The translations under genes were made by a program, and so were the position numbers. From a virus (Duplodnaviria > Heunggongvirae > Uroviricota > Caudoviricetes), in the IMG/VR virus record IMGVR_UViG_3300045988_124839: a stretch of 44,051 nt of DNA; one strand, written 5' to 3'. How positions within the stretch are numbered: the first letter of the stretch is position 1; each line of letters opens with the position of its first letter. This document shows, in pieces, positions 8,814 through 23,907 of this stretch. A model generated the notes under the pieces. It was given only the letters and a program-made list of their open reading frames with translations, was not told where the DNA came from and did not search any database.

Positions 8814-11189
8814 ATGGCAGCAGTAAAAATCTCAGGTGTGCTGAAAGATGGTGCGGGAAAACCAATACAGAACTGCACTATTCAACTGAAGGCAAAGCGT
8901 AACAGCACCACGGTACTGGTGAACACGGTTGCCTCTGAAAATCCTGATGAAGCCGGGCGTTACAGTATGGACGTTGAGTATGGTCAGTACAGCGTCATCC
9001 TGTGGATTGAGGGTTCTCAGCCATCACATGTTGGGACCATTACCGTCTATGAAGGTTCCAGTCCGGGGACGCTGAATGATTTTCTCGGTGCCATGACGGA
9101 AGATGATGTCATGCCGGAGGCATTGCGCCGTTTTCAGGAAATGGTGGAAGAAGCGGCACGCAACGCCGAAGCCGCTTCTCAGAGCGCAGCGGCGGCAAAG
9201 AAATCCGAAACTGCAGCGGCATCATCGAAGAACGCGGCGAAAACCTCAGAAACGAATGCAGCTAACAGCGCACAGGCGGCAGCGACCTCACAGACTGCAT
9301 CGGCAAACTCCGCGACAGCAGCTAAAAAATCAGAAACCAACGCGAAAAATAGCGAGACAGCCGCAAAGACGAGCGAAACCAATGCAAAGTCCAGCCAGAC
9401 GGCAGCGAAGACCAGCGAAACGAATGCTAAAGCCAGTGAAACTGCGGCAAAAAACAGCCAGGTTGCAGCAGCCCAAAGCGAGAGCGCGGCAGCCGGTTCT
9501 GCGACTTCAGCAACTGGATCAGCAACTGCTGCGGCTAACAGCCAGAAAGCTGCGAAGACGAGTGAAACTAACGCAAAGTCCAGCCAGACGGCAGCGAAGA
9601 CCAGCGAAACGAATGCCAAAGCCAGCGAAACTGCGGCGAAAAACAGTCAGGATGCAGCAGCCCAAAGCGAGAGTGCTGCAGCTGGTTCTGCAAGCGCGGC
9701 GGCTGCTTCTGCCACTGCATCAGCCAACAGTCAAAAAGCAGCAAAAACCAGTGAAACCAATGCAAAGACAAGCGAGACTGCAGCGGCGAACTCGGCGAAA
9801 GCATCGGCAGCAAGCCAGACAGCAGCTAAAGCAAGTGAAGACGCAGCCAGAGAGTATGCAAGTCAGGCAGCAGAGCCGTATAAATATGTCTTACAGCCGC
9901 TGCCTGATGTGTGGATACCATTTAACGATTCGCTGGATATGATTACGGGCTTTTCGCCATCATATAAAAAAATTGTTATTGGTGACGATGAAATAACGAT
10001 GCCTGGCGACAAGATTGTTAAGTTTAAACGTGCATCGAAAGCAACCTATATTAACAAATCTGGTGTGCTGACAGAGGCTGCCATTGACGAGCCACGATTT
10101 GAACGTGATGGTCTGCTTATTGAGGGGCAAAGAACAAACTACATGCTCAATTCGGAAAGCCCTGCCAGTTGGGGGCGATCGTCAAATATGGATGTGCCCG
10201 AAACAGGGACGGATAATTTTGGTTTTACCTATGGAAAGTTTGTCTGCAACGATTCTCTGATTGGGCAAACCTCAGCCATTAATATGGCATCAATTGCTGC
10301 AACAAAGTCAGTTGATGTCTCAGGCGATAATAAATATGTGACAACCTCATGTCGTTTTAAAACAGAACTGCAGGTAAGGTTGCGTATCCGGTTTGATAAA
10401 TATGACGGTAGCGCAACAACTTTTCTTGGTGATGCGTATATTGATACACAAACGCTTGAAATTAATATGACAGGCGGTGCTGCCTCAAGGATTACAGCGA
10501 GAGTCAGAAAGGACGAAGCTACCGGATGGATTTTTGCAGAGGCAACAATTCAGGCAATTGATGGGGAGTTAAAAATAGGTTCTCAGATACAGTATTCTCC
10601 TAAGCAGGGCGGGGCAACCGTATCTGGTGACTATATTTATCTGGCCACCCCACAAGTAGAAAATGGGCCTTGTGTATCATCTTTTATTATATCAGGAACG
10701 ACGGCGGCGACCCGCGCAAGCGATATAGTTACAGTTCCCATTAAGAATAATCTTTATAATCTTCCTTTTACGGTTCTTTGTGAGGTACATAAGAACTGGT
10801 ATAAAACGCCAAATGCAGCGCCGCGTGTTTTTGATACCGGCGGTCATCAAACCGGAGCGGCTATTATTCTTGGCTTCGGTTCTTCAGCAGATTACGACGG
10901 ATTTCCTTATTGCGATATTGGAGGAGCTAACAGACGGGTAAACGAAAACGCATCGCTTGAAAAAATGGTTATGGGGATGCGTGTAAAGTCAGATCAGTCT
11001 ACGTGCTCAGTAAGTAACGGGCGTATATCCAGCGAAACAAAAACCACATGGTCCTGTATTCAGAACACCGCAATTATCCGTATTGGAGGCCAGACTACAG
11101 CCGGGTTACGTCATTTATTTGGTCATGTCAGGAATTTCAGAATATGGCACAAGGCATTGACTGATGCTCAGGTGGGGGAGTCAATCTAA
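8814..11189 (+). CDS. stf: side tail fiber protein (Stf-like N-terminus, Ala/Ser/Thr-rich repeats, divergent AT-rich C-terminal domain)
   Basis: N-terminus MAAVKISGVLKDG... matches lambda Stf as recalled; GGAG RBS before the ATG at 8814 (ORF track starts at GTG 8808); repetitive KTSETNAK tract; C-terminal half lower in GC. Confidence 0.8.
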   Translation: MAAVKISGVLKDGAGKPIQNCTIQLKAKRNSTTVLVNTVASENPDEAGRYSMDVEYGQYSVILWIEGSQPSHVGTITVYEGSSPGTLNDFLGAMTEDDVMPEALRRFQEMVEEAARNAEAASQSAAAAKKSETAAASSKNAAKTSETNAANSAQAAATSQTASANSATAAKKSETNAKNSETAAKTSETNAKSSQTAAKTSETNAKASETAAKNSQVAAAQSESAAAGSATSATGSATAAANSQKAAKTSETNAKSSQTAAKTSETNAKASETAAKNSQDAAAQSESAAAGSASAAAASATASANSQKAAKTSETNAKTSETAAANSAKASAASQTAAKASEDAAREYASQAAEPYKYVLQPLPDVWIPFNDSLDMITGFSPSYKKIVIGDDEITMPGDKIVKFKRASKATYINKSGVLTEAAIDEPRFERDGLLIEGQRTNYMLNSESPASWGRSSNMDVPETGTDNFGFTYGKFVCNDSLIGQTSAINMASIAATKSVDVSGDNKYVTTSCRFKTELQVRLRIRFDKYDGSATTFLGDAYIDTQTLEINMTGGAASRITARVRKDEATGWIFAEATIQAIDGELKIGSQIQYSPKQGGATVSGDYIYLATPQVENGPCVSSFIISGTTAATRASDIVTVPIKNNLYNLPFTVLCEVHKNWYKTPNAAPRVFDTGGHQTGAAIILGFGSSADYDGFPYCDIGGANRRVNENASLEKMVMGMRVKSDQSTCSVSNGRISSETKTTWSCIQNTAIIRIGGQTTAGLRHLFGHVRNFRIWHKALTDAQVGESI
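9366..9767 (+). repeat. tandem direct repeat inside stf (189-bp unit, about 2.1 copies)
   Basis: Two near-identical in-frame 189-bp units encoding KTSETNAKSSQTAAKTSETNAKASETAAKNSQ(V/D)AAAQSESAAAGSA..., then a partial third unit. Confidence 0.8.
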
Positions 11190-11470
11190 TGAAAGATTTA
11201 ACACTCAAATTTGCCGACAGGGCCGACTTTTCGGCCTTTATGGAGAGTATTGGCTATTATGATGACGAGTCGATGCAGGATGATATTCTTATTGACGTGA
11301 TAGGTAACGTGTACAAAGAAACCGGAGAACTGAATGAAGATGGCGAACCGGTATGTGTTAAGGAAGACGGATATTTTGTAAACGTGCGCATCATTAATGA
11401 TGTGAAAACACCGTCAATATTCGATGAATACGTGGTTGCTGTTGAGCATCAACTTCGTGGCTGGATGTGA
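11189..11470 (+). CDS. hypothetical protein (acidic, 93 aa) between the two fiber genes
   Basis: ATG overlaps stf stop (TAATG); no recognisable motif; position suggests fiber accessory role. Confidence 0.4.
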   Translation: MKDLTLKFADRADFSAFMESIGYYDDESMQDDILIDVIGNVYKETGELNEDGEPVCVKEDGYFVNVRIINDVKTPSIFDEYVVAVEHQLRGWM

Positions 11471-11479
11471 GGAAGAATA

Positions 11480-12520
11480 ATGGCTACATCGACAGTAATT
11501 CCTGATGACATCAAAACGCTAAAATCCGATGTTAGCAAATTAAAAAACGATCAAGGGAGCTACGCAACAAAATCATATGTAGACAATAAAACAACATGGA
11601 ATAGTTATTGCAATGTAATCTATGATCAAAAGACATTGCCGACCACTGGAACTATATTTAGCGGTAAGATTCACTTGTCAAATAAGACAGGAGAAACCGA
11701 AAACGCTTATAGTGAGATGTACACCAGAAAAAATATTGACGGTACAAAAGATACAATGACAAGGATTGTCACACACAATGGAACAAAAGGTATCTTTTGG
11801 GATTTTAGCGATCTTTACGGCGGAACATTAATTTTTCCAGGCAGTGATGGTTACCTTAAGATGGGGAACTGTCTCATGTCGTATGGTGTGCGGGGAAGTA
11901 ACGCGCTTATTAAGTTTGACTGCACAGACACATTACAAATCAAATATGCCAATCATGGGTCAACCATGACATTAAACACACAGGGGACCGCTCATTCTGG
12001 CGCTACTACTAGTTTGTGGGGTAACTCTACCCGTCCGGTTGTATATGAAGTTGGTGCTGATGGTGGCGCGTATATGTTCTATGCGCAGAAAAATACCGAT
12101 AACACCTATATGTTAAGCGTTAATGGTGCATGTCATGCCACCGCATTTAACCAGCATTCCGACCGGGATCTGAAAGACAACATTCAGGTGATCGATAATG
12201 CAACCGACCGCATCCGTAAAATGAACGGCTATACATACACGCTTAAAGAAAACGGTATGCCCTATGCAGGTGTCATTGCACAGGAAGCTCTGGAAGCAAT
12301 CCCAGAAGTTGTAGGTTCCGCAATGAAATATCAGGACGGTGCAAGCGGATCGGAAGGTGAAGAAGGTGAACGTTATTACACAGTAGATTATTCTGGTGTT
12401 ACTGGCTTGCTTGTTCAGGTAGCCAGAGAGTCAGACGACAGAATAACAGTACTGGAAGAAGAAAACGCAGAATTAAGGCAAAGATTATCTGCAATTGAGG
12501 CGACGCTTGCGTCTAAATAA
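11480..12520 (+). CDS. tail fiber / tail spike protein with C-terminal intramolecular chaperone (peptidase S74-like) domain
   Basis: C-terminal motif SDRDLKDNIQVIDNATDRIRKMNGYTY...YAGVIAQEALEAIPEVV typical of the autoproteolytic chaperone-of-endosialidase domain, followed by a coiled-coil tail; RBS GAGGAAGAATA before ATG. Confidence 0.72.
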   Translation: MATSTVIPDDIKTLKSDVSKLKNDQGSYATKSYVDNKTTWNSYCNVIYDQKTLPTTGTIFSGKIHLSNKTGETENAYSEMYTRKNIDGTKDTMTRIVTHNGTKGIFWDFSDLYGGTLIFPGSDGYLKMGNCLMSYGVRGSNALIKFDCTDTLQIKYANHGSTMTLNTQGTAHSGATTSLWGNSTRPVVYEVGADGGAYMFYAQKNTDNTYMLSVNGACHATAFNQHSDRDLKDNIQVIDNATDRIRKMNGYTYTLKENGMPYAGVIAQEALEAIPEVVGSAMKYQDGASGSEGEEGERYYTVDYSGVTGLLVQVARESDDRITVLEEENAELRQRLSAIEATLASK

Positions 12521-12526
12521 TATTAA

Positions 12527-12548
12527 GGGGCCGAGCGCCCCGTTTTAT
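12527..12548 (+). terminator. putative rho-independent terminator after fiber gene
   Basis: GC-rich hairpin GGGGCCGAGCGCCCC followed by GTTTTATT. Confidence 0.5.
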
Positions 12549-12562
12549 TGGGTAGGATGAAA

Positions 12563-12856
12563 ATGGATATAACACCTTTCCTTCATGCTCTTTGTGCTGT
12601 GGCTGCGCAGCTACTGATTGGTCTTTTTACCGGGAACTGGGCTTACGGAGCGATAGCCGGTTGTACGTTCTTCATTGCGCGTGAACACACCCAGGCAGAA
12701 TATCGCTGGATTGAAATGTTCGGGCATGGCAAGCGGATTAACATGCCGTGGTGGGGCGGTTTTGATCCGCGCGTGTGGGATGTGGCAAGCCTGATGGATT
12801 TTGCTGTGCCGGTGGTGGCGTGTCTGCTGGTCTGGCTGTTGGTTTATCGTGGGTGA
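12563..12856 (+). CDS. small hydrophobic membrane protein
   Basis: About 97 aa with two hydrophobic segments; AGGA RBS 6 nt before the ATG at 12563 (ORF track begins at TTG 12548). Confidence 0.4.
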   Translation: MDITPFLHALCAVAAQLLIGLFTGNWAYGAIAGCTFFIAREHTQAEYRWIEMFGHGKRINMPWWGGFDPRVWDVASLMDFAVPVVACLLVWLLVYRG

Positions 12857-12990
12857 AAAAAGGTGAGCTGTATATGCAACGGAGGAAGAAACCCCGTTGC
12901 TGGAAGCCTGGAAAAAGTATCGGGTGTTGTTGAATCGTGTTGATACATCACTATCTCCAGATATCGAGTGGCCAAGTCAACCATAAATCA

Positions 12991-13015
12991 ATATCCCCTG
13001 CAATGCAGGGGATAT
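12991..13015. terminator. bidirectional hairpin terminator at the 3' end of the sop operon
   Basis: Perfect inverted repeat ATATCCCCTGC-AAT-GCAGGGGATAT with T-rich flanks on both strands, 4 nt from the sopB stop. Confidence 0.65.
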
Positions 13016-13018
13016 TTC

Positions 13019-13984
13019 TTAATTATCAGTAGATTGTTCCTCTAGTAACAACTCAATTCTGCTTAGTATTTCTTTAGATATTTTTCGGCTATCAATTTTT
13101 ATAGTTACAAAATTACCTTTATATCTAGCCGTGATCCCTTCCCCATATTTTTTCTCGTCTTTTGTTTTTTCCTCGTCGCCAACCAGAACAGAGTCAGATA
13201 ATATTTGTATAATCCGTGAAGCTTCTAAATCCTCGCCGTTTTTTTTAATTGCCAGAAGATGATGAGCAGCATTGCTCATGGCAGCCATGTTTTTTTTGTA
13301 GACCTTAAACAAAGAATCTCCAGCACGAGCTGACAGTTCTCCTGGATGATTGAAGATAGCTAATATATCTTTTGGTAGACCAGCTGTATTAATACAGCGA
13401 GTGATAATATTTCTGTCTATATTTTCAGCCTCGGCTAATGCTTTAACGTTACCATCAAAGTCATTTAGCTTGCGTAAGTATCTCTTTCCTCTTTCGTATG
13501 CACTAATAGGCCTATAATCGTTACCAATTTGGGATAACCAATGCATCTGTTCATCGTCGAGATCACCTATTAAGACGCGATAGTCACATCCTGTTAATAT
13601 CGCTGCTTTTCTTCTACGTGAGCCGTCAGCGACTTCAACGATTCCAGACACTTTTCTGGCGAAAGCTGGATTTTGTTGTCCAGACGTTAGAAAAGATGGG
13701 ATTAAATCGGCTAGAGAGGATTCATTTAATAAATCTTGATCGCGTTCATTACCTAGCCATACCATTGTTGCCATTTCAACTTTATCTGCGGGAATTGTCT
13801 CTAACTTAAAGTTAACATTACGTCCGCATACTGGCAAAGTTATGCTGTTACCGGTTAATGAACTCAGTTGACGTTTTAAATCACCAACCATAGGTGATAC
13901 GGGCTGATGTTCAGGGGCATGATGATTATTACTCATAATGCGATTAATATCTGGAGCATTTTTTAGAAGAGAGCGCTGTTTCAT
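13019..13984 (-). CDS. sopB: partition protein SopB (ParB-type centromere-binding protein)
   Basis: 321 aa; immediately downstream of and overlapping (ATGA) the ParA-type ATPase gene; size and arrangement as F/N15 sopAB. Confidence 0.85.
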   Translation of the reverse strand: MKQRSLLKNAPDINRIMSNNHHAPEHQPVSPMVGDLKRQLSSLTGNSITLPVCGRNVNFKLETIPADKVEMATMVWLGNERDQDLLNESSLADLIPSFLTSGQQNPAFARKVSGIVEVADGSRRRKAAILTGCDYRVLIGDLDDEQMHWLSQIGNDYRPISAYERGKRYLRKLNDFDGNVKALAEAENIDRNIITRCINTAGLPKDILAIFNHPGELSARAGDSLFKVYKKNMAAMSNAAHHLLAIKKNGEDLEASRIIQILSDSVLVGDEEKTKDEKKYGEGITARYKGNFVTIKIDSRKISKEILSRIELLLEEQSTDN

Positions 13985-15150
13985 TATTCGTTCTCCCAGC
14001 GAGGTTTTATTAGATCATCAAAAATTTCTCGGCAAACAGGGTCCCATATAGAAACAGCATTTCTCCATGCATTCAATGTTGAACGTTGGTTTGCTGCTTG
14101 TTCAAATACTGTTCTCATTTTTATCTGGCCTTTACCTACTTCATCGGTAACGCGTACAACCTGACGTAATACCATTGATCCCCATGTATTTCTTATTTGT
14201 TCTTCCATCCATCGTGATTGATTCCCTGTAGTGAGACTATATTTAGTCAGAAGTAAGCGAACGGTTGGCTCAAATCCACCTAGGTCAACGCTTTCCAATA
14301 GATCGAGAAGCATTGTGAAAAACTGTAGAACAGAAGCGTAATCAAATAATTCTGCAGGTGTAGCAACAACAATAACGTCAGCGGCACAAACAACGTTAAT
14401 GGTTCCTGTACCGAGGTTCGGAGCACTATCTATAACGATAACATCGTAGTTATCCCAAACTGATTCAATAGCTGCGCGCAGCATAAGGTGTGGAGGATGA
14501 GGCAATTTACCCTGAGCATGATATTGCATGAGATCTGTTTCTATACGATGTAAAGCTAGGCAGCTAGGGATAATGTCTAGCCCAGGCCAACATGTTGGCT
14601 TTATAGCATATTCAGCGTTATCGCGTTCTCCTAAGTAAAATGGCAGTAAAGTATCCTCGGCATGGATATGTAAATCAGGAACATAACCGTGATACATAGA
14701 GGCCGTGCCTTGAGGATCGTTACCTTCAACCAAAAGAACACGATGACCTTGTAATGCTAACCATTGAGCTTGATGTACCGCAGACGATGTTTTATAAACG
14801 CCGCCTTTGTGTGACATAACGGCAAGCACAACAGGGTTTTTATCTTGTGGTCGTTGGTTTGGGTTGCCAAAAACTGCTCGCATACTGTTGATTTGATCTA
14901 TGGTATAACCAGCACGACGTTCAATTCTTCCTCTCATTTCAAAGTCAGGTGCAGGTAAACGCCCGCTCTTCTCAGCATCTCTAATTGCTTGAGGAGTTAC
15001 ACCAATTAAATCTGCTACTTCAGTTATACCCCATCGGCGGGTGATACGCCGAGCTTCAGGACTATCATCACCGAATTGAGCGATAGCAATTGCTTGGGTC
15101 ATTTCTTGACCTCTCGTAACACAATCTTGCAATAACTTTTTCAAAGACAT
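13984..15150 (-). CDS. sopA: partition ATPase SopA (ParA, type Ia with N-terminal HTH extension)
   Basis: 388 aa; deviant Walker A MSHKGGVYKTSS; long N-terminal extension typical of type Ia ParA. Confidence 0.9.
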   Translation of the reverse strand: MSLKKLLQDCVTRGQEMTQAIAIAQFGDDSPEARRITRRWGITEVADLIGVTPQAIRDAEKSGRLPAPDFEMRGRIERRAGYTIDQINSMRAVFGNPNQRPQDKNPVVLAVMSHKGGVYKTSSAVHQAQWLALQGHRVLLVEGNDPQGTASMYHGYVPDLHIHAEDTLLPFYLGERDNAEYAIKPTCWPGLDIIPSCLALHRIETDLMQYHAQGKLPHPPHLMLRAAIESVWDNYDVIVIDSAPNLGTGTINVVCAADVIVVATPAELFDYASVLQFFTMLLDLLESVDLGGFEPTVRLLLTKYSLTTGNQSRWMEEQIRNTWGSMVLRQVVRVTDEVGKGQIKMRTVFEQAANQRSTLNAWRNAVSIWDPVCREIFDDLIKPRWENE

Positions 15151-15164
15151 ACTGTCATCTCCAG

Positions 15165-15250
15165 CTTGTAACTTTGCTTAATAATTAAATCTTTGCTTAT
15201 TTCTAGCAAATTTGCATGAAAAAGGCAAAGCAAAACGAAAAACGCAAAGG
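15165..15250 (-). promoter_or_regulatory. sop operon promoter/operator region with CTTTGC/GCAAAG motifs
   Basis: CTTTGC at 15172 and 15191, GCAAAG at 15225 and 15244, palindrome GCAAATTTGC at 15206-15215, directly upstream of sopA. Confidence 0.5.
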
Positions 15251-15434
15251 TGAATATTTGAGCTAAATCATCTTTTGTTCCCCTCCCGAAATGCATAAAA
15301 CGAACAACGATATAATCATAACTAATTGATATTTATTATCTTTTTTAAAGAAAGGAAATCATGTAAAACTAGGGAAACATGATAAGAATCATCAATGAGA
15401 TACGTTTTCTCTATTAGTTCTCCCAATCTTACCA

Positions 15435-15585
15435 ATACGAGAACATAAACAGAGAACATAAAAATCAAGTAATGATACAAACACAACAAAGAACATAAAT
15501 AAAGAATTAAAACCAATGCTAAATAAAGCAGTACATAATATGAGAACATTACACCAAATGAGAACATTAATCAAGAACACAACGA
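15435..15585. repeat. array of (G/A)AGAACAT direct repeats left of the telomere-resolution palindrome
   Basis: GAGAACAT at 15439, 15452, 15542, 15560; AAGAACAT at 15489; AAGAACAC at 15574; AT-rich region without plausible coding. Confidence 0.7.
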
Positions 15586-15586
15586 A

Positions 15587-15628
15587 ACATAATTCCCCAT
15601 TATACGCGCGTATAATGGGGAATTATGT
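15587..15628. other. telRL: telRL-like telomere resolution site (42-bp perfect palindrome, protelomerase target)
   Basis: ACATAATTCCCCATTATACGCGCGTATAATGGGGAATTATGT is a perfect palindrome; core CCATTATACGCGCGTATAATGG matches the N15 telO core as recalled; 170 bp upstream of telN. Confidence 0.88.
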
Positions 15629-15798
15629 GCTGATCTTTAGAACAGAGTCAAGGAACAAATTTTGACGTTCCGATATTGTGTTTTTGTTTATTATCCGTTA
15701 TTATGTTCTGTTAGTTTATGACTAAGTTAACGCGTTATTAGTTATCTTATTCTCAAATTGTGTTACGATAATCCGAGCGGACAATCAGGAGAGGAAAG

Positions 15799-17706
15799 AT
15801 GAGCAAAGTAAAAATCGGTGAATTAATAAACTCACTTGTTAGCGATGTTGAGTCAATAGATAACTCTGACCGTCCTCAAGGGGAAAAAACAAAAAAAATA
15901 AAAGCTGTTGCATTAAAATTTAAAAATGCATTATTTAATGACAAGCGAAAGTTTAGGGGGAAAGGATTAGAAAAAAGAATTACAGCCAACACATTCAATG
16001 CCTATATGAGCAGGGCCAGAAAACGGTTTGATGATAAACTTCATCATAGCTTTGAAAAAAATATACATCGCCTATCTGAAAAGTATCCTTTATATAATGA
16101 GGAGCTATTATCATGGCTTTCTCTACCTGCTGCCGATATTCGCCAGAGAATGTCAGCTTTACAGGCAAAATTAAAATTAATTCTCCCTTTATCAGAAGAT
16201 TTATCTAATATCAGAATTGGTGATAACAAAAGTCATAATAAGTTATTAAAATTATCAAATAAATATAAAGAGTGGCAATTCGCCATTTCTGATTTAACTA
16301 GCGATAACTGGAAAGATAAGCGCGATTATTTATATAAATTACTACAGCAAGGATCTGCCTTACTTGAGGAGTTGAATCAGCTAAAAGTTAACCATGAGAT
16401 TCTCTATCATCTTCAACTAAGCCCTGCCGAACGCGCATCTATCCAGCAACGATGGGCAGACGTTCTGCACAATAAGAAACGTAACGTGGTGGTCATTGAT
16501 TACCCTAAATATATGCAAGCTATTTACGATATTATAAATAGCCCTGCTACATTAAATAATCTAAACACTCGTTCAGGTATGGCTCCTTTGGCATTTGCAC
16601 TTGCTGCATTGTCAGGAAGACGAATGATTGAGATTATGTATCAAGGTACATTTACTGTTTCTGGTAAGTATACCGTTGATTTTTTAGGCCAAGCAAAAAA
16701 AAGAACTTCTGATGATATAACCAGAAAAATATATACATTATGCGAAGCAAAAACATTTGTTTATTTAATAAATGTACTTCGCTCATGCCCAGCAGCATCT
16801 GATTTTGATGATGTCGTTAAAGGTTATGGAGATAACGACACACGCTCTGAAAACGGACGGATTAATGCCATATTAGCAAAGGCTTTTAACCCGTGGGTTA
16901 AATCATTTTTCAAAGATGACCGCCGTGTTTATAAAGATAGTCGTGCTATTTATGCCCGTATTGCGTATGAAATGTTTTTCCGCGTAGATCCTCGTTGGAA
17001 AAACGTAGATGAGGATGTTTTCTTTATGGAAATTTTAGGCCATGACGATGAAAACACTCAATTACACTATAAGCAATTCAAGCTGGCCAACTTCTCAAAG
17101 ACATGGAGGCCAAATACTGGAAACGAAAATACCAGGCTGGAAGCATTGCAGCAGCTTGATGACGAAATGCCAGGATTCGCCAGAGGAGATGCCGGAGTTC
17201 GTCTGCATAACACAGTTAAGCAGCTGGTAGAGCAGGACCCCTCTATAAAAATCACGAACAGCACTCTAAGAGCATTCAAATTTAGCCCTACAATGATTAG
17301 TCGATACCTGGAATTTGCTGCTGATGCTCTGGGGCAATTTGTTGGCGAAAATGGACAATGGCAGCTGAAAATAGATTCTCCAGAAATCGTTATGCCTGAC
17401 GAAGAAGAGCTGGAAGCAATACCTGAACAGACGGATGAATTATCAGAGGATGACGATCTGGATGACGACGAAATTGAGATAGAGGAAGAGGAAGAGGAAG
17501 AGGAAGAGGAAGAGAGCGTAGAAGAACAGCAACCGCCCGCGCCTTCTTCACCTGTATCTAAGCCGGTATTTAAGCCTGTGAGAAATATTGGTGATGGCTC
17601 ATACGTTGTTGAGTTTCATTATAATGGCCAGAATTATGCTTGGTCCGGCAGTGCAAACAGCCCTATATCAGCAATGCAGTTAGCATGGCTGACATATTTC
17701 GGATAA
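15799..17706 (+). CDS. telN: protelomerase TelN
   Basis: 635 aa; N-terminus MSKVKIGELIN...RPQG.KTK.IKA...KNALFNDKRKFRGKGL.KRITANTFNAYMSRARKRFDDKLHHSF and much of the body match N15 TelN as recalled; acidic Glu/Asp-rich C-terminal tract; RBS AGGAGAGGAAAG. Confidence 0.95.
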   Translation: MSKVKIGELINSLVSDVESIDNSDRPQGEKTKKIKAVALKFKNALFNDKRKFRGKGLEKRITANTFNAYMSRARKRFDDKLHHSFEKNIHRLSEKYPLYNEELLSWLSLPAADIRQRMSALQAKLKLILPLSEDLSNIRIGDNKSHNKLLKLSNKYKEWQFAISDLTSDNWKDKRDYLYKLLQQGSALLEELNQLKVNHEILYHLQLSPAERASIQQRWADVLHNKKRNVVVIDYPKYMQAIYDIINSPATLNNLNTRSGMAPLAFALAALSGRRMIEIMYQGTFTVSGKYTVDFLGQAKKRTSDDITRKIYTLCEAKTFVYLINVLRSCPAASDFDDVVKGYGDNDTRSENGRINAILAKAFNPWVKSFFKDDRRVYKDSRAIYARIAYEMFFRVDPRWKNVDEDVFFMEILGHDDENTQLHYKQFKLANFSKTWRPNTGNENTRLEALQQLDDEMPGFARGDAGVRLHNTVKQLVEQDPSIKITNSTLRAFKFSPTMISRYLEFAADALGQFVGENGQWQLKIDSPEIVMPDEEELEAIPEQTDELSEDDDLDDDEIEIEEEEEEEEEEESVEEQQPPAPSSPVSKPVFKPVRNIGDGSYVVEFHYNGQNYAWSGSANSPISAMQLAWLTYFG

Positions 17707-17717
17707 AGCATACGGTA

Positions 17718-17741
17718 AAGGCACCGAATTATCGGTGCCTT
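17718..17741. terminator. hairpin terminator between telN and the leftward genes
   Basis: AAGGCACCGA-ATTA-TCGGTGCCTT (10-bp stem) followed by GTTGTGTGG on the + strand. Confidence 0.6.
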
Positions 17742-17751
17742 GTTGTGTGGT

Positions 17752-17916
17752 CTACCTCGCCTGCCCCTTTTCGTCCTCATCCAACTTTCTGATGGCCGTA
17801 GAATCAATACCCGCCGCCATACACACATCAGATGCAACAAACCACGGTTCGCCGTTGATCATCACTACACGAACCTGATGCTCTTCCTGAAAGGAAAATA
17901 CTGCTAACGCGCTCAT
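17752..17916 (-). CDS. short BRO-N-like ORF (possible antirepressor N-terminal fragment, 54 aa)
   Basis: Hand translation MSALAVFSFQEEHQVRVVMINGEPWFVASDVCMAAGIDSTAIRKLDEDEKGQAR; GEPWFVA.DV core resembles BRO-N domains; GGAGG 4 nt before ATG; not in the ORF track because it is under 60 aa. Confidence 0.4.
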   Translation of the reverse strand: MSALAVFSFQEEHQVRVVMINGEPWFVASDVCMAAGIDSTAIRKLDEDEKGQAR

Positions 17917-18146
17917 TCAGCCTCCTTATCGTGCAGCAATTGCGACGAGAGCGATGCTGAATAACCCTGTGCTTCGTGTGTTAGCTCACACGCAATTTGA
18001 AGGAGTTTCCCTGCTTCTGAGAGATAAATCGACGCCTCACAACTGGAGATTGTTCGATGGGCTGATGATACGAGCGCATAGACCTGAGCCAGACGTTCAT
18101 CCAACGATTCCAGCAGGCCAACAGTGTTCATTTTTACCTGATTCAT
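17913..18146 (-). CDS. hypothetical protein (77 aa)
   Basis: ORF with GAGGTGG RBS; stop overlaps the start of the next ORF (ATGA). Confidence 0.4.
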   Translation of the reverse strand: MNQVKMNTVGLLESLDERLAQVYALVSSAHRTISSCEASIYLSEAGKLLQIACELTHEAQGYSASLSSQLLHDKEAE

Positions 18147-18683
18147 GCAGCCACCTCGCGCACCGGAATACGGGCAGACAATACCAGGACAAACCGGCTG
18201 GCAAACTGGCGACGAGCTTCCCGTTCAGATGACGCGATGGTGGAAAGATGATGGATGTGTGACTTTTTGTCTGTGCGAACGATTGCCGCAAATTTGAATT
18301 TGAACATGGTATGCACTCCGTTTAATTGGTCGTGCTACCACCAGAGTTCCTACGCTCTATATGGCGGTAGCCCAGACGGGGGTAGGAATACCGGTAAACG
18401 AAGAAACCGGCCAGCTAAAAGCTGCCCCATCTGAGCCACCATAAATTTGGTGTACGCAGATTTTACACACAAAAAAACACGCTGGCGCGTGTTGTGCGCT
18501 TCATTTACTCGGGTTCCTACGCCCGGCTACGGGATTTACCGTAGCGGAGTAAACTTTACCGTCAAAACGACGCGCACGTCAATAATTTGCAAAGACATTT
18601 TACCCCGTGACCAGTCACGGGGACAGGTGTTTTTATAGTTTGCTTGAACGAGTGATCAGAAGTTGATCGTTAATCAAAGGCCA

Positions 18684-18995
18684 TTACTGATTAAGAGATT
18701 GGAAATACCTAACTAACTTACCGGCATCATCACATTTTTCTTTATCTTCGTCCTTAACATAGCCGCGACAAAAGGCTGAATAAAATTTTGCATTTTCAGA
18801 AGCAAAAGCAGCCGTCGAAAGGAGCAGCTCTTTGCATGACTCTTTTGATGCAGCATCGGGATTATTTTTACATGCAAGCTCCGCTGATGAGTTAATAACA
18901 GAAATGCTATCTTCCTGGGCATAAACCGCAGCAGAAAAGGCAAAACATAAAACAAAAATAAAACTCTTCACTTTATCTCCTGTAACAGTCATCAC
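18684..18995 (-). CDS. small secreted cysteine-containing protein (signal peptide)
   Basis: N-terminal KVKSFIFVLCFAFSAAVYA-QED signal-peptidase I type signal; four Cys in the mature part; AT-rich gene. Confidence 0.5.
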   Translation of the reverse strand: MMTVTGDKVKSFIFVLCFAFSAAVYAQEDSISVINSSAELACKNNPDAASKESCKELLLSTAAFASENAKFYSAFCRGYVKDEDKEKCDDAGKLVRYFQSLNQ

Positions 18996-18998
18996 AAT

Positions 18999-19406
18999 TC
19001 AATCAACTTTTTTAGCATCAGCCATACGATTCAACCAGGAATCAACAATCGGTTGCTCATCTACAGAATGTTTACCAGGTATAACTCGCCAGCTATCTTG
19101 CGAAAATCTGCCGTACTTATGCGGGAATAGGCCTTTCTTTATCTCCCACCATGTACTAGGAAAACCATCCACAAAAGTACCAATTAACAGGAGAGGGACA
19201 AAAATCAGAGCTACAAACCATCGTGCAAGAAAGTGTTCAACAACAACATTTTCACCGTTGTAGTAATACGCATACGCATCCAATATGCGAATTTTCCTTA
19301 CCTTAAAAATAGCCTTATGCTGAGAACGACTTAACTTGATACGAATATATCCCTTATCCAAAGGGGATTCGTATTTGTATGATTGAACAGCCATTTTTAA
19401 CCCCAC
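18999..19406 (-). CDS. membrane protein (one transmembrane segment)
   Basis: 135 aa with hydrophobic segment WFVALIFVPLLLIGTFV; contiguous with neighbours on the - strand. Confidence 0.45.
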   Translation of the reverse strand: MGLKMAVQSYKYESPLDKGYIRIKLSRSQHKAIFKVRKIRILDAYAYYYNGENVVVEHFLARWFVALIFVPLLLIGTFVDGFPSTWWEIKKGLFPHKYGRFSQDSWRVIPGKHSVDEQPIVDSWLNRMADAKKVD

Positions 19407-19723
19407 TCACCATCAGCAAACAAAGCGTTATACTCTGACAATGGTAGACGGTTGCCCTCGATGTAGAGATTCAGTTCATACTTCGTCTCCGGGTTTTCCT
19501 TGTCGGCTCGTTCCCAACGCTCAGCAGCCTTACGCGCCAATAATTCCACTGCTTTCAGATAATCCTCCGTACGGAACCAGCCAAAGATAAGGCCACGATC
19601 TGTTACAGCCCAGGCGACCTTTTTTTCTTCCTCCTGGATAGCCCTAATGCGTCGTTCGCATTCATCCCGGCAGAACTGCAGCTGACGGTAATCAAGTTTG
19701 TCCAAAAATGCAGTAGTAGACAT
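19397..19723 (-). CDS. hypothetical protein (108 aa)
   Basis: Compact ORF overlapping its neighbours, downstream of repA on the same strand. Confidence 0.45.
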   Translation of the reverse strand: MSTTAFLDKLDYRQLQFCRDECERRIRAIQEEEKKVAWAVTDRGLIFGWFRTEDYLKAVELLARKAAERWERADKENPETKYELNLYIEGNRLPLSEYNALFADGEWG

Positions 19724-19727
19724 ATTT

Positions 19728-19919
19728 TTACTCCCCGTTCACCGAAAATTCACGATAGAAACGTTTCCACATACGATAAGTCTGCGCAAATTGTTCACCA
19801 CGAAACATCGCCTTCCTGGCCTTCATGTTTTCCTTGTGAGACTTTCGGTCTATGAACCAAAACCATAGATGGAACACACAAAGCAAGAGACACAAAGATA
19901 ATATCCAATCATTACCCAT
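19728..19919 (-). CDS. small hydrophobic protein (63 aa)
   Basis: Internal ATG at 19919 overlapping the repA stop; hydrophobic segment LSLCLLLCVFHLWFWFI. Confidence 0.35.
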   Translation of the reverse strand: MGNDWILSLCLLLCVFHLWFWFIDRKSHKENMKARKAMFRGEQFAQTYRMWKRFYREFSVNGE

Positions 19920-22900
19920 AGAAAGCGCCCTGCTCTTCGTAGCTGCATGAGCTATTCCCCGTAATGTATTCACGTAACCGCCGCAGCTCATTGCTGGAAA
20001 GGTGATCCATGAACTCTGTGAGGTACAGGGATGCAAACGTCATAGCTATGCTGGCTGATGACCATGATGACATAGTGGCCAACTCCTCACTGGAAAGCGC
20101 ACTCATCGCCCAGGACTCAGGTACAGCCACTGGCAACACGGCCAAAGCCTCAGAAATTACTGAATGAGGGGCGTTTTGAACCTGCTCGTTTGTGGATCGC
20201 GTTTTATCATCCATATATATATTGAGATCCAAATCGCGATCCATTTCGATGGCTGTCTTCTCGGCTTTACGCGTTTTTAGGGTTAGGCCATCTTTCTGAC
20301 GCTGAACAAGAATATCCAGCATAAATGCCGCTGATTCAGGCTCAACAAAACGCAAGGTTGGACGCTTATCGCCGTCTCTGCCGCGACGTTTACCTGTTTT
20401 AAGGCCAAGAGAGTCGCAAATGTTTTTAAACAACGCTTCCGGCACTTTAGGCTTCCCTTTTGGCGTCATAAAACCACCAATGTGCAGAACGTTATTCAAC
20501 AGGTCACGGCGTTCGGCTGTCATGAGGTTATCTCGAGCGAATTTGAGACGCTCCTGAGTCGCCTCGCCGGTCATAGTCTCAGGGTTGATACCGCAGTCGA
20601 TAAAGTACTGCCGGAGAGTTGCTGATTTAAGCGCATAGAAACCGCGCGCCCCGACTTCAACAGTAGGAGTAGCTTTTACCTTGTGATCGATTATTCCAGG
20701 GAATTTAGTTTTAAAGACATCATCAGCCTGCTCGCGAGTCATCGCGGTCACTACAAAATATTGCCACTGTCCCGCCTGACGGTATGCGTAGGTAAAATTG
20801 ATGGCTGCTTCTTCCCGGTCGTAACGACGAGCTGTTACCTCATCTAAAAGCATTGTTTCATAGCGGCGAATTTTGTCTCGAGCACCATCGAAATAGAATT
20901 TTAGCGTGCCTTCTTCAACCGGTAGTTTCAGTTCGTTTTCAATATCCCAGCGGACAAGTTTTGCCTGTTCTTCAAGCGTCAGCGCGCGTTTTTTTAGCAG
21001 TTCTTCACGCTCTGATTCTTGTGGAGTTTCTGTATTGAGGTGCAGATCCAGTGTCTGTTCCCACACAATATCCCGCGCTTCTTTACGCAGATCTTTACCG
21101 ATATCATTCGCAGCATAATCGGTGGCCAGCGGCGATACCTTATAACCGTCGCTGTGCATGATGCAGATCATGTTGCTGGCGTAGTCGTTACGCGCAGTCG
21201 CTTCAATTGCGGCTGCTTTAATTTTCATCCTGGTAAAGTCGGTATTGGCCACCCCCATTGATATACGGTCGCCATCGAAAACGACATCCGTCAGTTCACC
21301 GTTCATACCTGCGGTAGCAAGCAATGCCTGGGCGAATGCTCGTTCTATTTTTTGCGGGTCAGTTTCACGTTTTGCACGAGCTTTATCAAAGCCGATAATA
21401 AATTCTTTCGCTGTACGGTCGCGGCGTAGCATTTGCACTGCGTCGCTGGGTACAACTTCACCACAGAACATGCCGAAATGACGGTCAAAATGTTTTTGCT
21501 CAATCGACACGCCGGATGAAATAGACGGGCTATAAATCAGGCCGTCGTATTTTTTGACCATCTTTTTCGGTTGATTGGTAAATGCTTCAACTTCTGGCTC
21601 TGGTTTGTTTTTCTGGTTTACACACAGAAATTTCTTACCAGGAAAATGCATTCTCAGGGTGGCTGTCACATCTTCTGCAAAGGTGGAGCTGTCGGTGGCC
21701 AACATGATTTTTTCCCCATCCGATACAGCTTTCACCACCTCGGTCATGATGCGATCTTTTTCTGTATAAAAAACCCGGATTGGCTCACCTGTTTCGCGGT
21801 TGCGAACATCAACAGGTAATTCAATTACGTGGATCTGCAGCCATGCCGGTAAACCTAGTTCTTCACGGCGTTTCATAGCCAGTTCAGCCAGGTCAACCAG
21901 CAGATCGTTCGCATCAGCATCTACCATGATTGGGTGTTGTTCCGTTCTGGCCAGCGCGTCAATTAGCGTATTGAATACAGCCACCGGGTTTTCCATAGCC
22001 CGACCGGAAAGAACGGCACGTAGCCCTTGTGTGGCCTCGTCAAAGCCAAAATAGTCGTGCTGGCGCATCAACGGTTGCCAGCAGTTTTTAACAATCGAGT
22101 TTATGCAGATGGTCAGTTTACTGGCGTATGGAGCCATTTCCTGATAGCCAGGATCCTGATAGTGCAGGATATCGGCTTTTACACCTTTTCCTTCTGTCAT
22201 CATTTCCCACAGGCCACCAATAAGGGAGACACGGTGAGCAACAGAGATACCACGTTCTGAGCTATGCATTAACGGTCGTAACAATCCAGTAGATTTGCCG
22301 GAACCCATACCAGCACGGACGATGACTATCCCCTGTAGTGATTGCACGTACTTCAGGACATCATCGGTCATTACCGAAGTTTCAAAACGCTTATAGGTGA
22401 TATGTTGAGGGCGTTTATTGGGATCAGTTATGCGTTCGCTGAAAGAGCGCGGAGCCTGGGCAATACGGCACTTTTTATTCAGGCGACGGGCAATGTGGTC
22501 TTTTACCGTAGCGCGATAGATATTTTCCAGTCCCATTTCACGCAGAACGATGCAGAACATGTTAAATAAATCTGACGGACTGTTAGGAACCGGACAGGTT
22601 AGCATGCCAATATCAACCGCTCTCAGCAGCTCTTTGGCAAAAGTACGACGGTTATCCCGCTTAATTGTCTTCAGGCGGTTGAGCGTCAGAGATAGCAAAT
22701 CAGTACCGGTTTTCAGGCGGTTTGCTGTTGCAAATAGTTGACGTGCTGTTTCACGAAGTCCACGTAGTTTGTGCAGGTCGTTGAAGTCACTGCACTCCAT
22801 TTGCGGATCGTCTTCAAAAGTTGGATAGACGCAGCGGACATCGTTGAATTTCGATAAGATTTCATAGCCAGTCCGCAGGCCTGTATTCCCTTTTCCTTCT

Positions 22901-23907
22901 GTGGCAGATTTCCGGTCATTATCCAGTGCGCAGGTGATTTTTGCCGCCGGGTACATGTTTACCAGTTGTTCCACAACATGAACCATGTTGTTAGCGGATA
23001 CAGCGACAACCACAGCGTCAAAGCGTTTATCTTTTTTCGTGGCAAGCCAGATGGATGCACCAGTAGCAAAACCTTCTGTAACAGCGATGTTTTGCGCCCC
23101 TTTCAGCTCACCGATAACAAAGCAGGCACCGACGAAATCGCCGCTGGTTACTGCGCTGGTCTGGTATTTCCCACCTTGTTTGTCGATTCGCTGCCAACCC
23201 ACAATACGACCATCATAACGACCGTCCAGGTGAGCCAGAGGGATAGCCATATATGTGGTTGGCCCCCGGCTCCATTTCGCACTGTCGTGACTGGTCACGC
23301 GACGCACATCACATGAACTAAAAACGTCACGAATACCTTTTTTAATCGCATATGGCCATGAGCCGTCTTCAGCCGGAGCATGTTCCCACGCGCTGTGGAA
23401 TGCCAGCCATCCCAGCAAACGTTCATGGTCCATTTGGTTGTTTTTCAGGTCATTAATTCGTTTTTGTTCTTCACGGCGACGACGTGCTTCGGCCTGACGT
23501 TCTATTCTTTCCCGTTCTTCTTCCGGTTGTGCGACCACGGTCGCATTATTCCGTTGTTGCTCACGGCGATATTCAGAAAACAGGAAGGAGAAACCGCTCC
23601 ATGAGCCAGCATCGCTGCCTTTATGGACGAAGTTAATGAACGGGTAATCAATCCCTTTGCTGTGTTCCAGCCTGGAGTAAATTTCTACGCGTCCTTTCAG
23701 GCTCTTTTCGAGAGCTTCTGGAGATGTTTTATTGTATGAAGAGTAACGCTCACCCCCCCCGCGAGGGTTGAGTTGGATGTTGTCGGAACAGGCAGGCCAG
23801 TTGATACCAGCCATCTGTGCCAGCTCGGTTAGTTCATCCCGTGCTGCTTCAATTAGCGAGAACGGATCGCTGCCAAAGCGATCCGCATAGAAATCGTTTA
23901 ATGTCAT
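19912..23907 (-). CDS. repA: replication protein RepA (primase-helicase)
   Basis: 1331 aa; Walker A GMGSGKST; size and position (leftward, between telN and cB) as N15 RepA (about 1320 aa). Confidence 0.85.
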   Translation of the reverse strand: MTLNDFYADRFGSDPFSLIEAARDELTELAQMAGINWPACSDNIQLNPRGGGERYSSYNKTSPEALEKSLKGRVEIYSRLEHSKGIDYPFINFVHKGSDAGSWSGFSFLFSEYRREQQRNNATVVAQPEEERERIERQAEARRRREEQKRINDLKNNQMDHERLLGWLAFHSAWEHAPAEDGSWPYAIKKGIRDVFSSCDVRRVTSHDSAKWSRGPTTYMAIPLAHLDGRYDGRIVGWQRIDKQGGKYQTSAVTSGDFVGACFVIGELKGAQNIAVTEGFATGASIWLATKKDKRFDAVVVAVSANNMVHVVEQLVNMYPAAKITCALDNDRKSATEGKGNTGLRTGYEILSKFNDVRCVYPTFEDDPQMECSDFNDLHKLRGLRETARQLFATANRLKTGTDLLSLTLNRLKTIKRDNRRTFAKELLRAVDIGMLTCPVPNSPSDLFNMFCIVLREMGLENIYRATVKDHIARRLNKKCRIAQAPRSFSERITDPNKRPQHITYKRFETSVMTDDVLKYVQSLQGIVIVRAGMGSGKSTGLLRPLMHSSERGISVAHRVSLIGGLWEMMTEGKGVKADILHYQDPGYQEMAPYASKLTICINSIVKNCWQPLMRQHDYFGFDEATQGLRAVLSGRAMENPVAVFNTLIDALARTEQHPIMVDADANDLLVDLAELAMKRREELGLPAWLQIHVIELPVDVRNRETGEPIRVFYTEKDRIMTEVVKAVSDGEKIMLATDSSTFAEDVTATLRMHFPGKKFLCVNQKNKPEPEVEAFTNQPKKMVKKYDGLIYSPSISSGVSIEQKHFDRHFGMFCGEVVPSDAVQMLRRDRTAKEFIIGFDKARAKRETDPQKIERAFAQALLATAGMNGELTDVVFDGDRISMGVANTDFTRMKIKAAAIEATARNDYASNMICIMHSDGYKVSPLATDYAANDIGKDLRKEARDIVWEQTLDLHLNTETPQESEREELLKKRALTLEEQAKLVRWDIENELKLPVEEGTLKFYFDGARDKIRRYETMLLDEVTARRYDREEAAINFTYAYRQAGQWQYFVVTAMTREQADDVFKTKFPGIIDHKVKATPTVEVGARGFYALKSATLRQYFIDCGINPETMTGEATQERLKFARDNLMTAERRDLLNNVLHIGGFMTPKGKPKVPEALFKNICDSLGLKTGKRRGRDGDKRPTLRFVEPESAAFMLDILVQRQKDGLTLKTRKAEKTAIEMDRDLDLNIYMDDKTRSTNEQVQNAPHSVISEALAVLPVAVPESWAMSALSSEELATMSSWSSASIAMTFASLYLTEFMDHLSSNELRRLREYITGNSSCSYEEQGAFYG

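Follow-up and report, generated by a model that had tools for sequence, protein, structure and literature searches.

Repeats flanking the telomere site telRL have reportedly been noted in phage N15 since 2000–2002. The natural target of the N15 protelomerase TelN is about 310 bp long; telRL consists of a core plus the 10-bp motifs L3 and R3, and degenerate copies of L3/R3 (L1, L2, R1 and R2) are found in the DNA neighbouring it (PMC12624138). The 2025 study of hairpin protection by TelN only speculates on the function of these flank repeats, suggesting, with reference to the TelK–DNA crystal structure, that they are bound by TelN CTD1, the stirrup (PMC12624138). For resolution, both in vitro and in vivo, the 56-bp telRL is sufficient by itself (PMC3540006), and TelN without CTD1 still protects hairpins (PMC12624138). 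A flanking inverted repeat was suggested to be important in vivo in PY54, and the repeat of the PY54 relative P840 is dispensable (PMC10612081). From the sufficiency of telRL and the dispensability of CTD1 and of the P840 repeat, it follows that any role of such repeats is accessory.

The window, that is, the whole 44,051-bp stretch of DNA analysed here, is an N15-like telomere phage ('phage-plasmid'), and its relatives were gathered by tblastn against phages and by a search for contigs encoding TelN. The sopB (13019–13984, − strand) and sopA (13984–15150, − strand) genes are followed by a 648-bp intergenic region holding the telomere palindrome, beyond which lies the divergent telN gene (15799–17706, + strand), so that the array zone sits between sopA and telN. 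A RepA-like primase/helicase is encoded further on, at 19912–23907. The telN start is 171 bp past the palindrome, in agreement with the roughly 170 bp given in the preliminary description. Its product, a 635-aa protelomerase, matched TelK (PDB 2V6E) with E=2e-295 and contains all four TelK domains in Pfam (TelK_N, muzzle, ResT-TelK catalytic and stirrup); it is 97.8% identical to TelN of Escherichia phage PhiR46_1, 77% to N15 TelN, 79% to phiKO2 TelK and 43% to PY54 Tel.

The telRL core was located at 15587–15628 as a perfect 42-bp palindrome (inverted repeat of 21+21 nt, 100% complementary) centred between 15607 and 15608, and its centre contains TACGCGCGTA, which is common to N15, phiKO2 and PY54. 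The left outer arm, equivalent to N15 L3, is CGAAACATAA (15583–15592, + strand) and the right outer arm, equivalent to N15 R3, is CAGCACATAA (15623–15632, − strand). Because the outer arms are asymmetric, the perfect palindrome is only 42 bp long, compared with 56 bp in N15; the left arm of the window differs from that of N15 in having diverged to a flank-like sequence. At the left arm position the PhiR46_1 clade reads CAGCACATAA and the window's clade CGAAACATAA. The arms are thus symmetric in the PhiR46_1 clade and in N15 and asymmetric in the clade of the window, in which the left arm is closer to the flank repeats than the right arm is.

We found eight matches to RAGAACAY on both strands of the window, six of which lie on the + strand within 142 bp (15439–15580). 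These exact copies start at 15439, 15452, 15489, 15542, 15560 and 15573, 7–148 bp left of the palindrome, and only two further matches occur in the remaining 44 kb. The claim that at least six (G/A)AGAACA(T/C) direct repeats lie within 150 bp left of the palindrome was therefore correct. As the zone is 57% A and 27% G+C, the clustering was tested against local composition. In the left 152-bp region the mean expectation was 0.06 copies from shuffles and 0.15 from a first-order Markov model, the observed number was 6, and the maximum in any trial was 3 (10,000–20,000 trials of shuffle/Markov). The array is real and non-random. The surrounding DNA (15435–15770) also shows a strong strand asymmetry that reverses across telRL: on the + strand, A accounts for 57% and T for 16% of the left side, compared with 26% and 44%, respectively, of the right side, at a G+C content of about 27–31% against 49% in the window. 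By eye, the hairpin-ward strand looks G-poor in other telomere phages examined as well.

The copies are organized in pairs. Degenerate copies at 15502 (AAGAATTA) and 15529 (CAGTACAT) complete four pairs on the left, with 13 bp from start to start, and repeat finding gave the same picture: on the left, a 23-nt unit that comprises two octamers at a 13-bp offset and occurs four times, and on the right, three copies of TTCYnnWATTRTGTT, which are left-type pairs read on the opposite strand. Altogether eight pairs extend over about 330 bp (15439–15767), four on the left and, on the right, one direct and three inverted, the right-hand repeats lying 10–139 bp from the palindrome. The zone therefore does not end at 15710, as had been described, since repeats run on to 15767.

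The outermost left pair (pair 4, 15439–15459, + strand) reads GAGAACAT-aaaca-GAGAACAT and points toward telRL. It is followed on the same strand by pair 3 (15489–15509, AAGAACAT-aaata-AAGAATTA), the second half-site of which is degenerate, by pair 2 (15529–15549, CAGTACAT-aatat-GAGAACAT) and by the innermost pair 1 (15560–15580, GAGAACAT-taatc-AAGAACAC), 10 bp before the left outer arm. On the right, the proximal pair (15638–15658, + strand, TAGAACAG-agtca-AGGAACAA) is direct and points away from telRL; it includes the AGAACAG that had been listed as an inverted copy at 15640, and which is in fact found at 15639–15645 in direct orientation. Beyond it lie three pairs on the − strand, at 15665–15685 (AAAAACAC-aatat-CGGAACGT), 15690–15710 (CAGAACAT-aataa-CGGATAAT) and 15747–15767 (CGTAACAC-aattt-GAGAATAA), the first of which mirrors left pair 2 (+78/+65 versus −78/−65). 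The other inverted copy described previously, ATGTTCT, was confirmed at 15703–15709: with a weight matrix built from the left copies, CAGAACATAA at 15703–15710 on the − strand was the best non-training match in the window (14.9 bits).

All four left pairs and three right pairs are thus oriented toward the centre. The proximal right pair breaks the mirror symmetry, and N15 behaves likewise at +31/+44. Since this pair points away, resolution would yield two hairpin ends with unlike proximal pairs. Another regularity was seen in the successive starts at 15439, 15489, 15529, 15560 and 15583 (the left arm), which are 50, 40, 31 and 23 bp apart, corresponding to about 5, 4, 3 and 2 helical turns and shrinking toward the palindrome. 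This progression could be due to chance; the spacings are nearly unchanged in PhiR46_1-type relatives, with single-base indels only within the array.

When distances were taken from the telRL centre, RGAACAY was found in the window at −168, −155, −118, −65, −47, −34 and, inverted, +101, and in N15 at −156, −121, −108, −66, −34, +31 and, inverted, +77 and +101, so that −34, −65/−66, −118/−121, −155/−156 and +101 are shared between the two. In a MAFFT alignment six of the eight window copies paired with N15 copies, and most aligned spacer positions were unlike. The half-sites of left pair 4 aligned with N15 TGAAACAC and AAGAACAT, and left pair 3 with N15 AAGAACAC-cataa-CAGAACAC; the half-site of left pair 1 at −34 has its N15 counterpart at −34. 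The N15 equivalent of the right proximal pair is GAGAACAT-aagcg-CAGAACAA at +31 and +44, and an N15 AGAACAT occupies the identical offset, +101, to the pair at 15690–15710. An unbiased self-match scan ranked shift 13 first in the window, N15, pEC12401-3 and Enterobacter phage MStein-2023a, and in all of these but pEC12401-3 the value was above the 95th percentile of shuffles; in phiKO2-type phages, PY54 and VP58.5 shift 13 did not rank first.

The shared motif, the offsets and the MAFFT pairing identify the array of the window as the orthologue of the accessory repeats of N15 tos, and on this comparison its left part is the orthologue of the left half of N15 tos. The equivalent zone in N15 is exactly that bracketed by the published tos primers (PMC2847241). 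The likeness covers the order sopBA, site, telN, the palindrome core, the 13-bp pairing, including a direct pair just right of telRL, and the extent of about 330 bp in the window against about 310 bp reported for N15. The earlier term 'tos-like' is accordingly borne out by motif, offsets, palindrome core and gene order. The accompanying statement that the repeat sequence is different from that of N15 is wrong, as N15 carries RGAACAY at nearly equal distances from the telRL centre. The two arrays do differ in the number of exact left RAGAACAY copies, six in the window and three in N15, which has five under the looser RGAACAY.

We further compared the flank repeats with the telRL arm, both in the window and across telomere phages. 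The flank motif RAGAACATAA resembles the arm CAGCACATAA. With up to two mismatches, this 10-mer occurred five times toward the centre and not at all in the opposite orientation in the window flanks (shuffle mean 0.47), and the right arm scored 9.1 bits on the flank-repeat matrix. In other telomere phages the flank motif was different and so was the arm. The PY54 arm AGTAACCTAT occurs in the PY54 flanks five times toward the centre and once away from it, and in N15-type flanks not at all. VP58.5 has ten oriented copies of the flank repeat TGTACATA, with no mismatch to its own arm. The top flank 8-mers of K242 and phiHAP-1 are each one mismatch from the phage's own arm, that of phiHAP-1 in opposite orientation. 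Arm and flanks are both of GTACCAC type in a Salmonella lineage, and in another lineage, with protein P0103, the arm itself is CAGAACACAT. This joint change of flank motif and arm between phages makes the protelomerase the favoured candidate for recognising the repeats, perhaps with its stirrup domain (CTD1). Arm mimicry is not the whole story, because the arm is GCACA in both the N15-type and the phiKO2-type group and the flanks are GAACA in the former and TAACA in the latter. We also considered by eye whether a 21-bp pair mimics a whole telRL half-site, and the spacing was unfit (13 versus 10 bp).

Where in the protelomerase such recognition might reside was examined at the level of domains. 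Stirrup residues 492–502 read AFKFSPTMIS in the N15 group and PFNFSTRLIP in the phiKO2 group; this might explain the GAACA and TAACA flanks and is only a lead, as it is confounded by phylogeny. The end of TelN (about residues 583–635; 17545–17703 in the window) consists of an acidic linker followed by a small, conserved beta-beta-beta-alpha domain, modelled confidently by AlphaFold (pLDDT 85), which weakly resembles dsRNA-binding domains. A word-based homologue search with this C-terminal domain alone gave no match. Two tandem copies of a domain of this type are present in the Salmonella-lineage protein P0089 (695 aa). An arm-binding role of the C-terminal domain, as in lambda Int, is not supported, since flank repeats persist where the domain is absent: they are present in phiHAP-1, the protelomerase of which terminates shortly beyond the stirrup domain, as does that of VP882, so the extra domain is not required for the architecture.

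Conservation was analysed among the relatives. Over ten relatives, 36 of the 48 columns in the AGAACA cores were invariant, compared with 51 of the 100 spacer columns (Fisher p=0.007), a p-value that is only indicative because the sequences are phylogenetically related. The AGAACA core of the first half-site of left pair 4 was invariant in all ten. In left pair 2 the strong and weak half-sites are swapped in the PhiR46_1 clade (GAGAACAC / ATAAATAT), which points to site turnover inside a conserved pair; such swapping between clades is what redundant binding sites undergoing turnover would be expected to show. That cores are kept and spacers diverge quickly is indicative of selection on the repeats. 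The left array as a whole (15435–15586) is the fastest-diverging segment of the intergenic region, being 84–86% identical in close relatives and 66–67% in the PhiR46_1 clade, against 93.5–95% and 78–80%, respectively, for the adjacent segment 15251–15434. Within that segment, a block separating the sop operator from the array (15348–15412) is nearly identical in the two clades of relatives; it holds the short inverted repeats ATCATGT...ACATGAT and ATGAT-aaga-ATCAT and has no obvious N15 counterpart. In the PhiR46_1-type plasmids pEC12401-3 and pS142-3 the DNA left of telRL is 66–86% identical to the window and that on the right 95%. The different nearest relatives on either side suggest that genome arms have been exchanged at the telomere site or close to it.

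Collectively, these data make it probable that the array consists of N15-type tos accessory repeats which, as predicted accessory binding sites of TelN, copy the outer-arm element of telRL. Accessory protelomerase binding sites had also been proposed in the preliminary description, and this proposal is favoured by the likeness to the arm, the change together with the arm and the roughly mirrored orientation. In the mechanism we envisage, the shared core ACAYAA would be recognised by TelN via the stirrup domain, and several TelN molecules could in this way load beside the cleavage site. After resolution each array would form a sub-telomeric platform for TelN, mostly pointing to its own hairpin, that would maintain a high local amount of the enzyme at the ends, where it could resolve replicated telomeres again and possibly also protect the ends. 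The most likely role of the repeats would thus be to concentrate TelN at the site and then at each hairpin end. The outermost right pair, lying over the probable telN promoter, could in addition let TelN limit its own synthesis.

The last point was approached through the sequence upstream of telN. The distal right pair (15747–15767) overlaps TGTTACGAT (15761–15769, + strand), a putative extended −10 element of telN; pair and element are invariant in eight relatives, and TGnTAnnnT is conserved in N15, phiKO2, a Pantoea lineage and a Salmonella lineage. Found by eye and by conservation, TGTTACGAT is the probable −10 of the telN promoter, and the pair over it is a reasonable candidate for telN autoregulation. 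A consensus promoter scan of the zone returned no + strand promoter and two − strand matches, with 4.2 expected by chance. The pair able to regulate telN sits outside the coordinates of the preliminary description, which had proposed the repeats as a regulatory site for telN. For the left array this is unlikely: in the linear prophage it ends up beside sopA, at the end opposite telN, and therefore cannot act on telN in cis.

It could be argued from the position of the distal pair, over a conserved extended −10 that closely precedes the ribosome-binding site of telN, and from the location of the whole region between divergent sopA and telN, that the repeats are purely transcriptional operators of telN and/or sopAB and have no telomere role. 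We regard this as rather unlikely, given that telN and the left array are no longer joined once the prophage is linear, that the scan of the zone gave nothing on the + strand and fewer − strand matches than chance, and that eight pairs in 330 bp far exceed what an operator requires. The sop promoter/operator, moreover, is found 190–270 bp further left (15172–15249). There, upstream of sopA, F-plasmid-type SopA operator motifs occur as CTTTGC at 15172 and 15191 and GCAAAG at about 15225 and 15244; they are 98–100% conserved in close relatives and form an element distinct from the telomere-flank repeats. A 51-aa ORF (15141–15296, − strand), hypothetical in PhiR46_1, overlies these motifs and is probably spurious. 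Binding of the repeats by a protein other than TelN, such as host IHF, Fis or H-NS or another phage protein, which would bend or organise the DNA of the telomere site, also appears unlikely. The composition of the zone (27% G+C against 49% in the window, 57% A on one strand) would suit such a protein, the 13-bp pairs with starts 50, 40 and 31 bp apart suggest an ordered assembly, and the positions before ACAYAA (GA in the N15 type, TA in the phiKO2 type), being unlike the GC of the arm and conserved within each group, could reflect a second reader. On the other hand, the flank motif follows the telRL arm of each phage in hosts as diverse as Yersinia, Vibrio, Halomonas and Salmonella, which is not expected of a host protein; the orientation of the repeats is roughly mirrored about telRL, and inspection by eye for the IHF and TorR consensus revealed no match.

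Given that telRL alone is enough for resolution, that no other part of the intergenic region is as poorly conserved as the left array and that single half-sites have been gained and lost between clades, the repeats might instead be non-functional, decaying duplicates of the arm, left by telomere-associated recombination in a fast-evolving, compositionally skewed spacer. This appears quite improbable in view of the conservation of cores over spacers, the centre offsets kept between the window and N15 despite a TelN identity of 77% and mostly different spacer columns, and the recurrence of the same architecture in unrelated groups of telomere phages. Another plasmid function (SopB centromere or replication iterons) or a small gene or RNA would be conceivable since the array adjoins sopAB and − strand ORFs of 81 and 62 aa cross it; we consider this very improbable. 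Boxes of the sopC type (F sopC, TGGGACCnnGGTCCCA) were found five times elsewhere in the window and none in 15150–15800: the sopC-like palindromes TGCGACC(AC/GT)GGTCGCA, of 16 bp each, lie at 23530, 25973, 30985, 33995 and 34215. They are two mismatches from the F box, shuffles giving 1.35 at three or fewer mismatches, and are probably dispersed N15-type centromere sites. One of them is inside the RepA-like gene, an arrangement that has also been reported for N15. Iterons were rejected because the array is more than 4 kb from the RepA-like gene, and in N15 replication is initiated within repA (PMC2847241). As for coding capacity, the − strand ORFs (15322–15567 and 15392–15580) are broken by one-base indels in relatives of 93% identity, and the 81-aa ORF (15322–15567) had no Pfam match. 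No Rfam match was better than E=0.08, and all were far below the gathering scores.

Building on the reading as accessory TelN sites, a further-reaching possibility, which we put forward tentatively and with some doubt, is that paired, oriented sub-telomeric repeats load several protelomerases to form a protective, self-regulating hairpin cap, a bacterial counterpart of telomere-binding complexes, which would be universal in hairpin-telomere phages and have a motif co-evolving with the resolvase. If so, a functional difference between the ends would be encoded in the 13-bp pairing and in the conserved 'wrong-way' pair next to telL. The array supplies concrete sites to mutate in asking whether protelomerases, besides making bacterial hairpin telomeres, cap them as well. 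It bears, too, on the engineering of TelN/tos linear vectors and linear chromosomes, in which the choice is between the minimal telRL and the full tos.

Beyond N15, two known systems invite comparison. Accessory sites around the core site of a tyrosine-recombinase/topoisomerase IB-like enzyme recall in concept the arm-type sites of lambda attP, which the tyrosine recombinase Int contacts through a separate domain. The likeness is an analogy only, although here too accessory sites could build a higher-order complex; unlike the lambda arm-type sites, the flank motif of the window resembles the arm of the core site, and phages whose protelomerase lacks the extra domain still have flank repeats. 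Closer are the pal site of PY54, with a full target of 142 bp, and that of P840, in which a palindromic resolution site is likewise accompanied by oriented repeats resembling the outer arm (AGTAACCCATTC versus AGTAACCTATTT); PY54 pal differs in having another motif and no 13-bp pairing. The array in the window is a further example of an already described feature, the N15-type tos repeats, to which it adds comparative evidence on selection, 13-bp pairs and kept positions, together with the presence of arm-like flank repeats in distant telomere phages.
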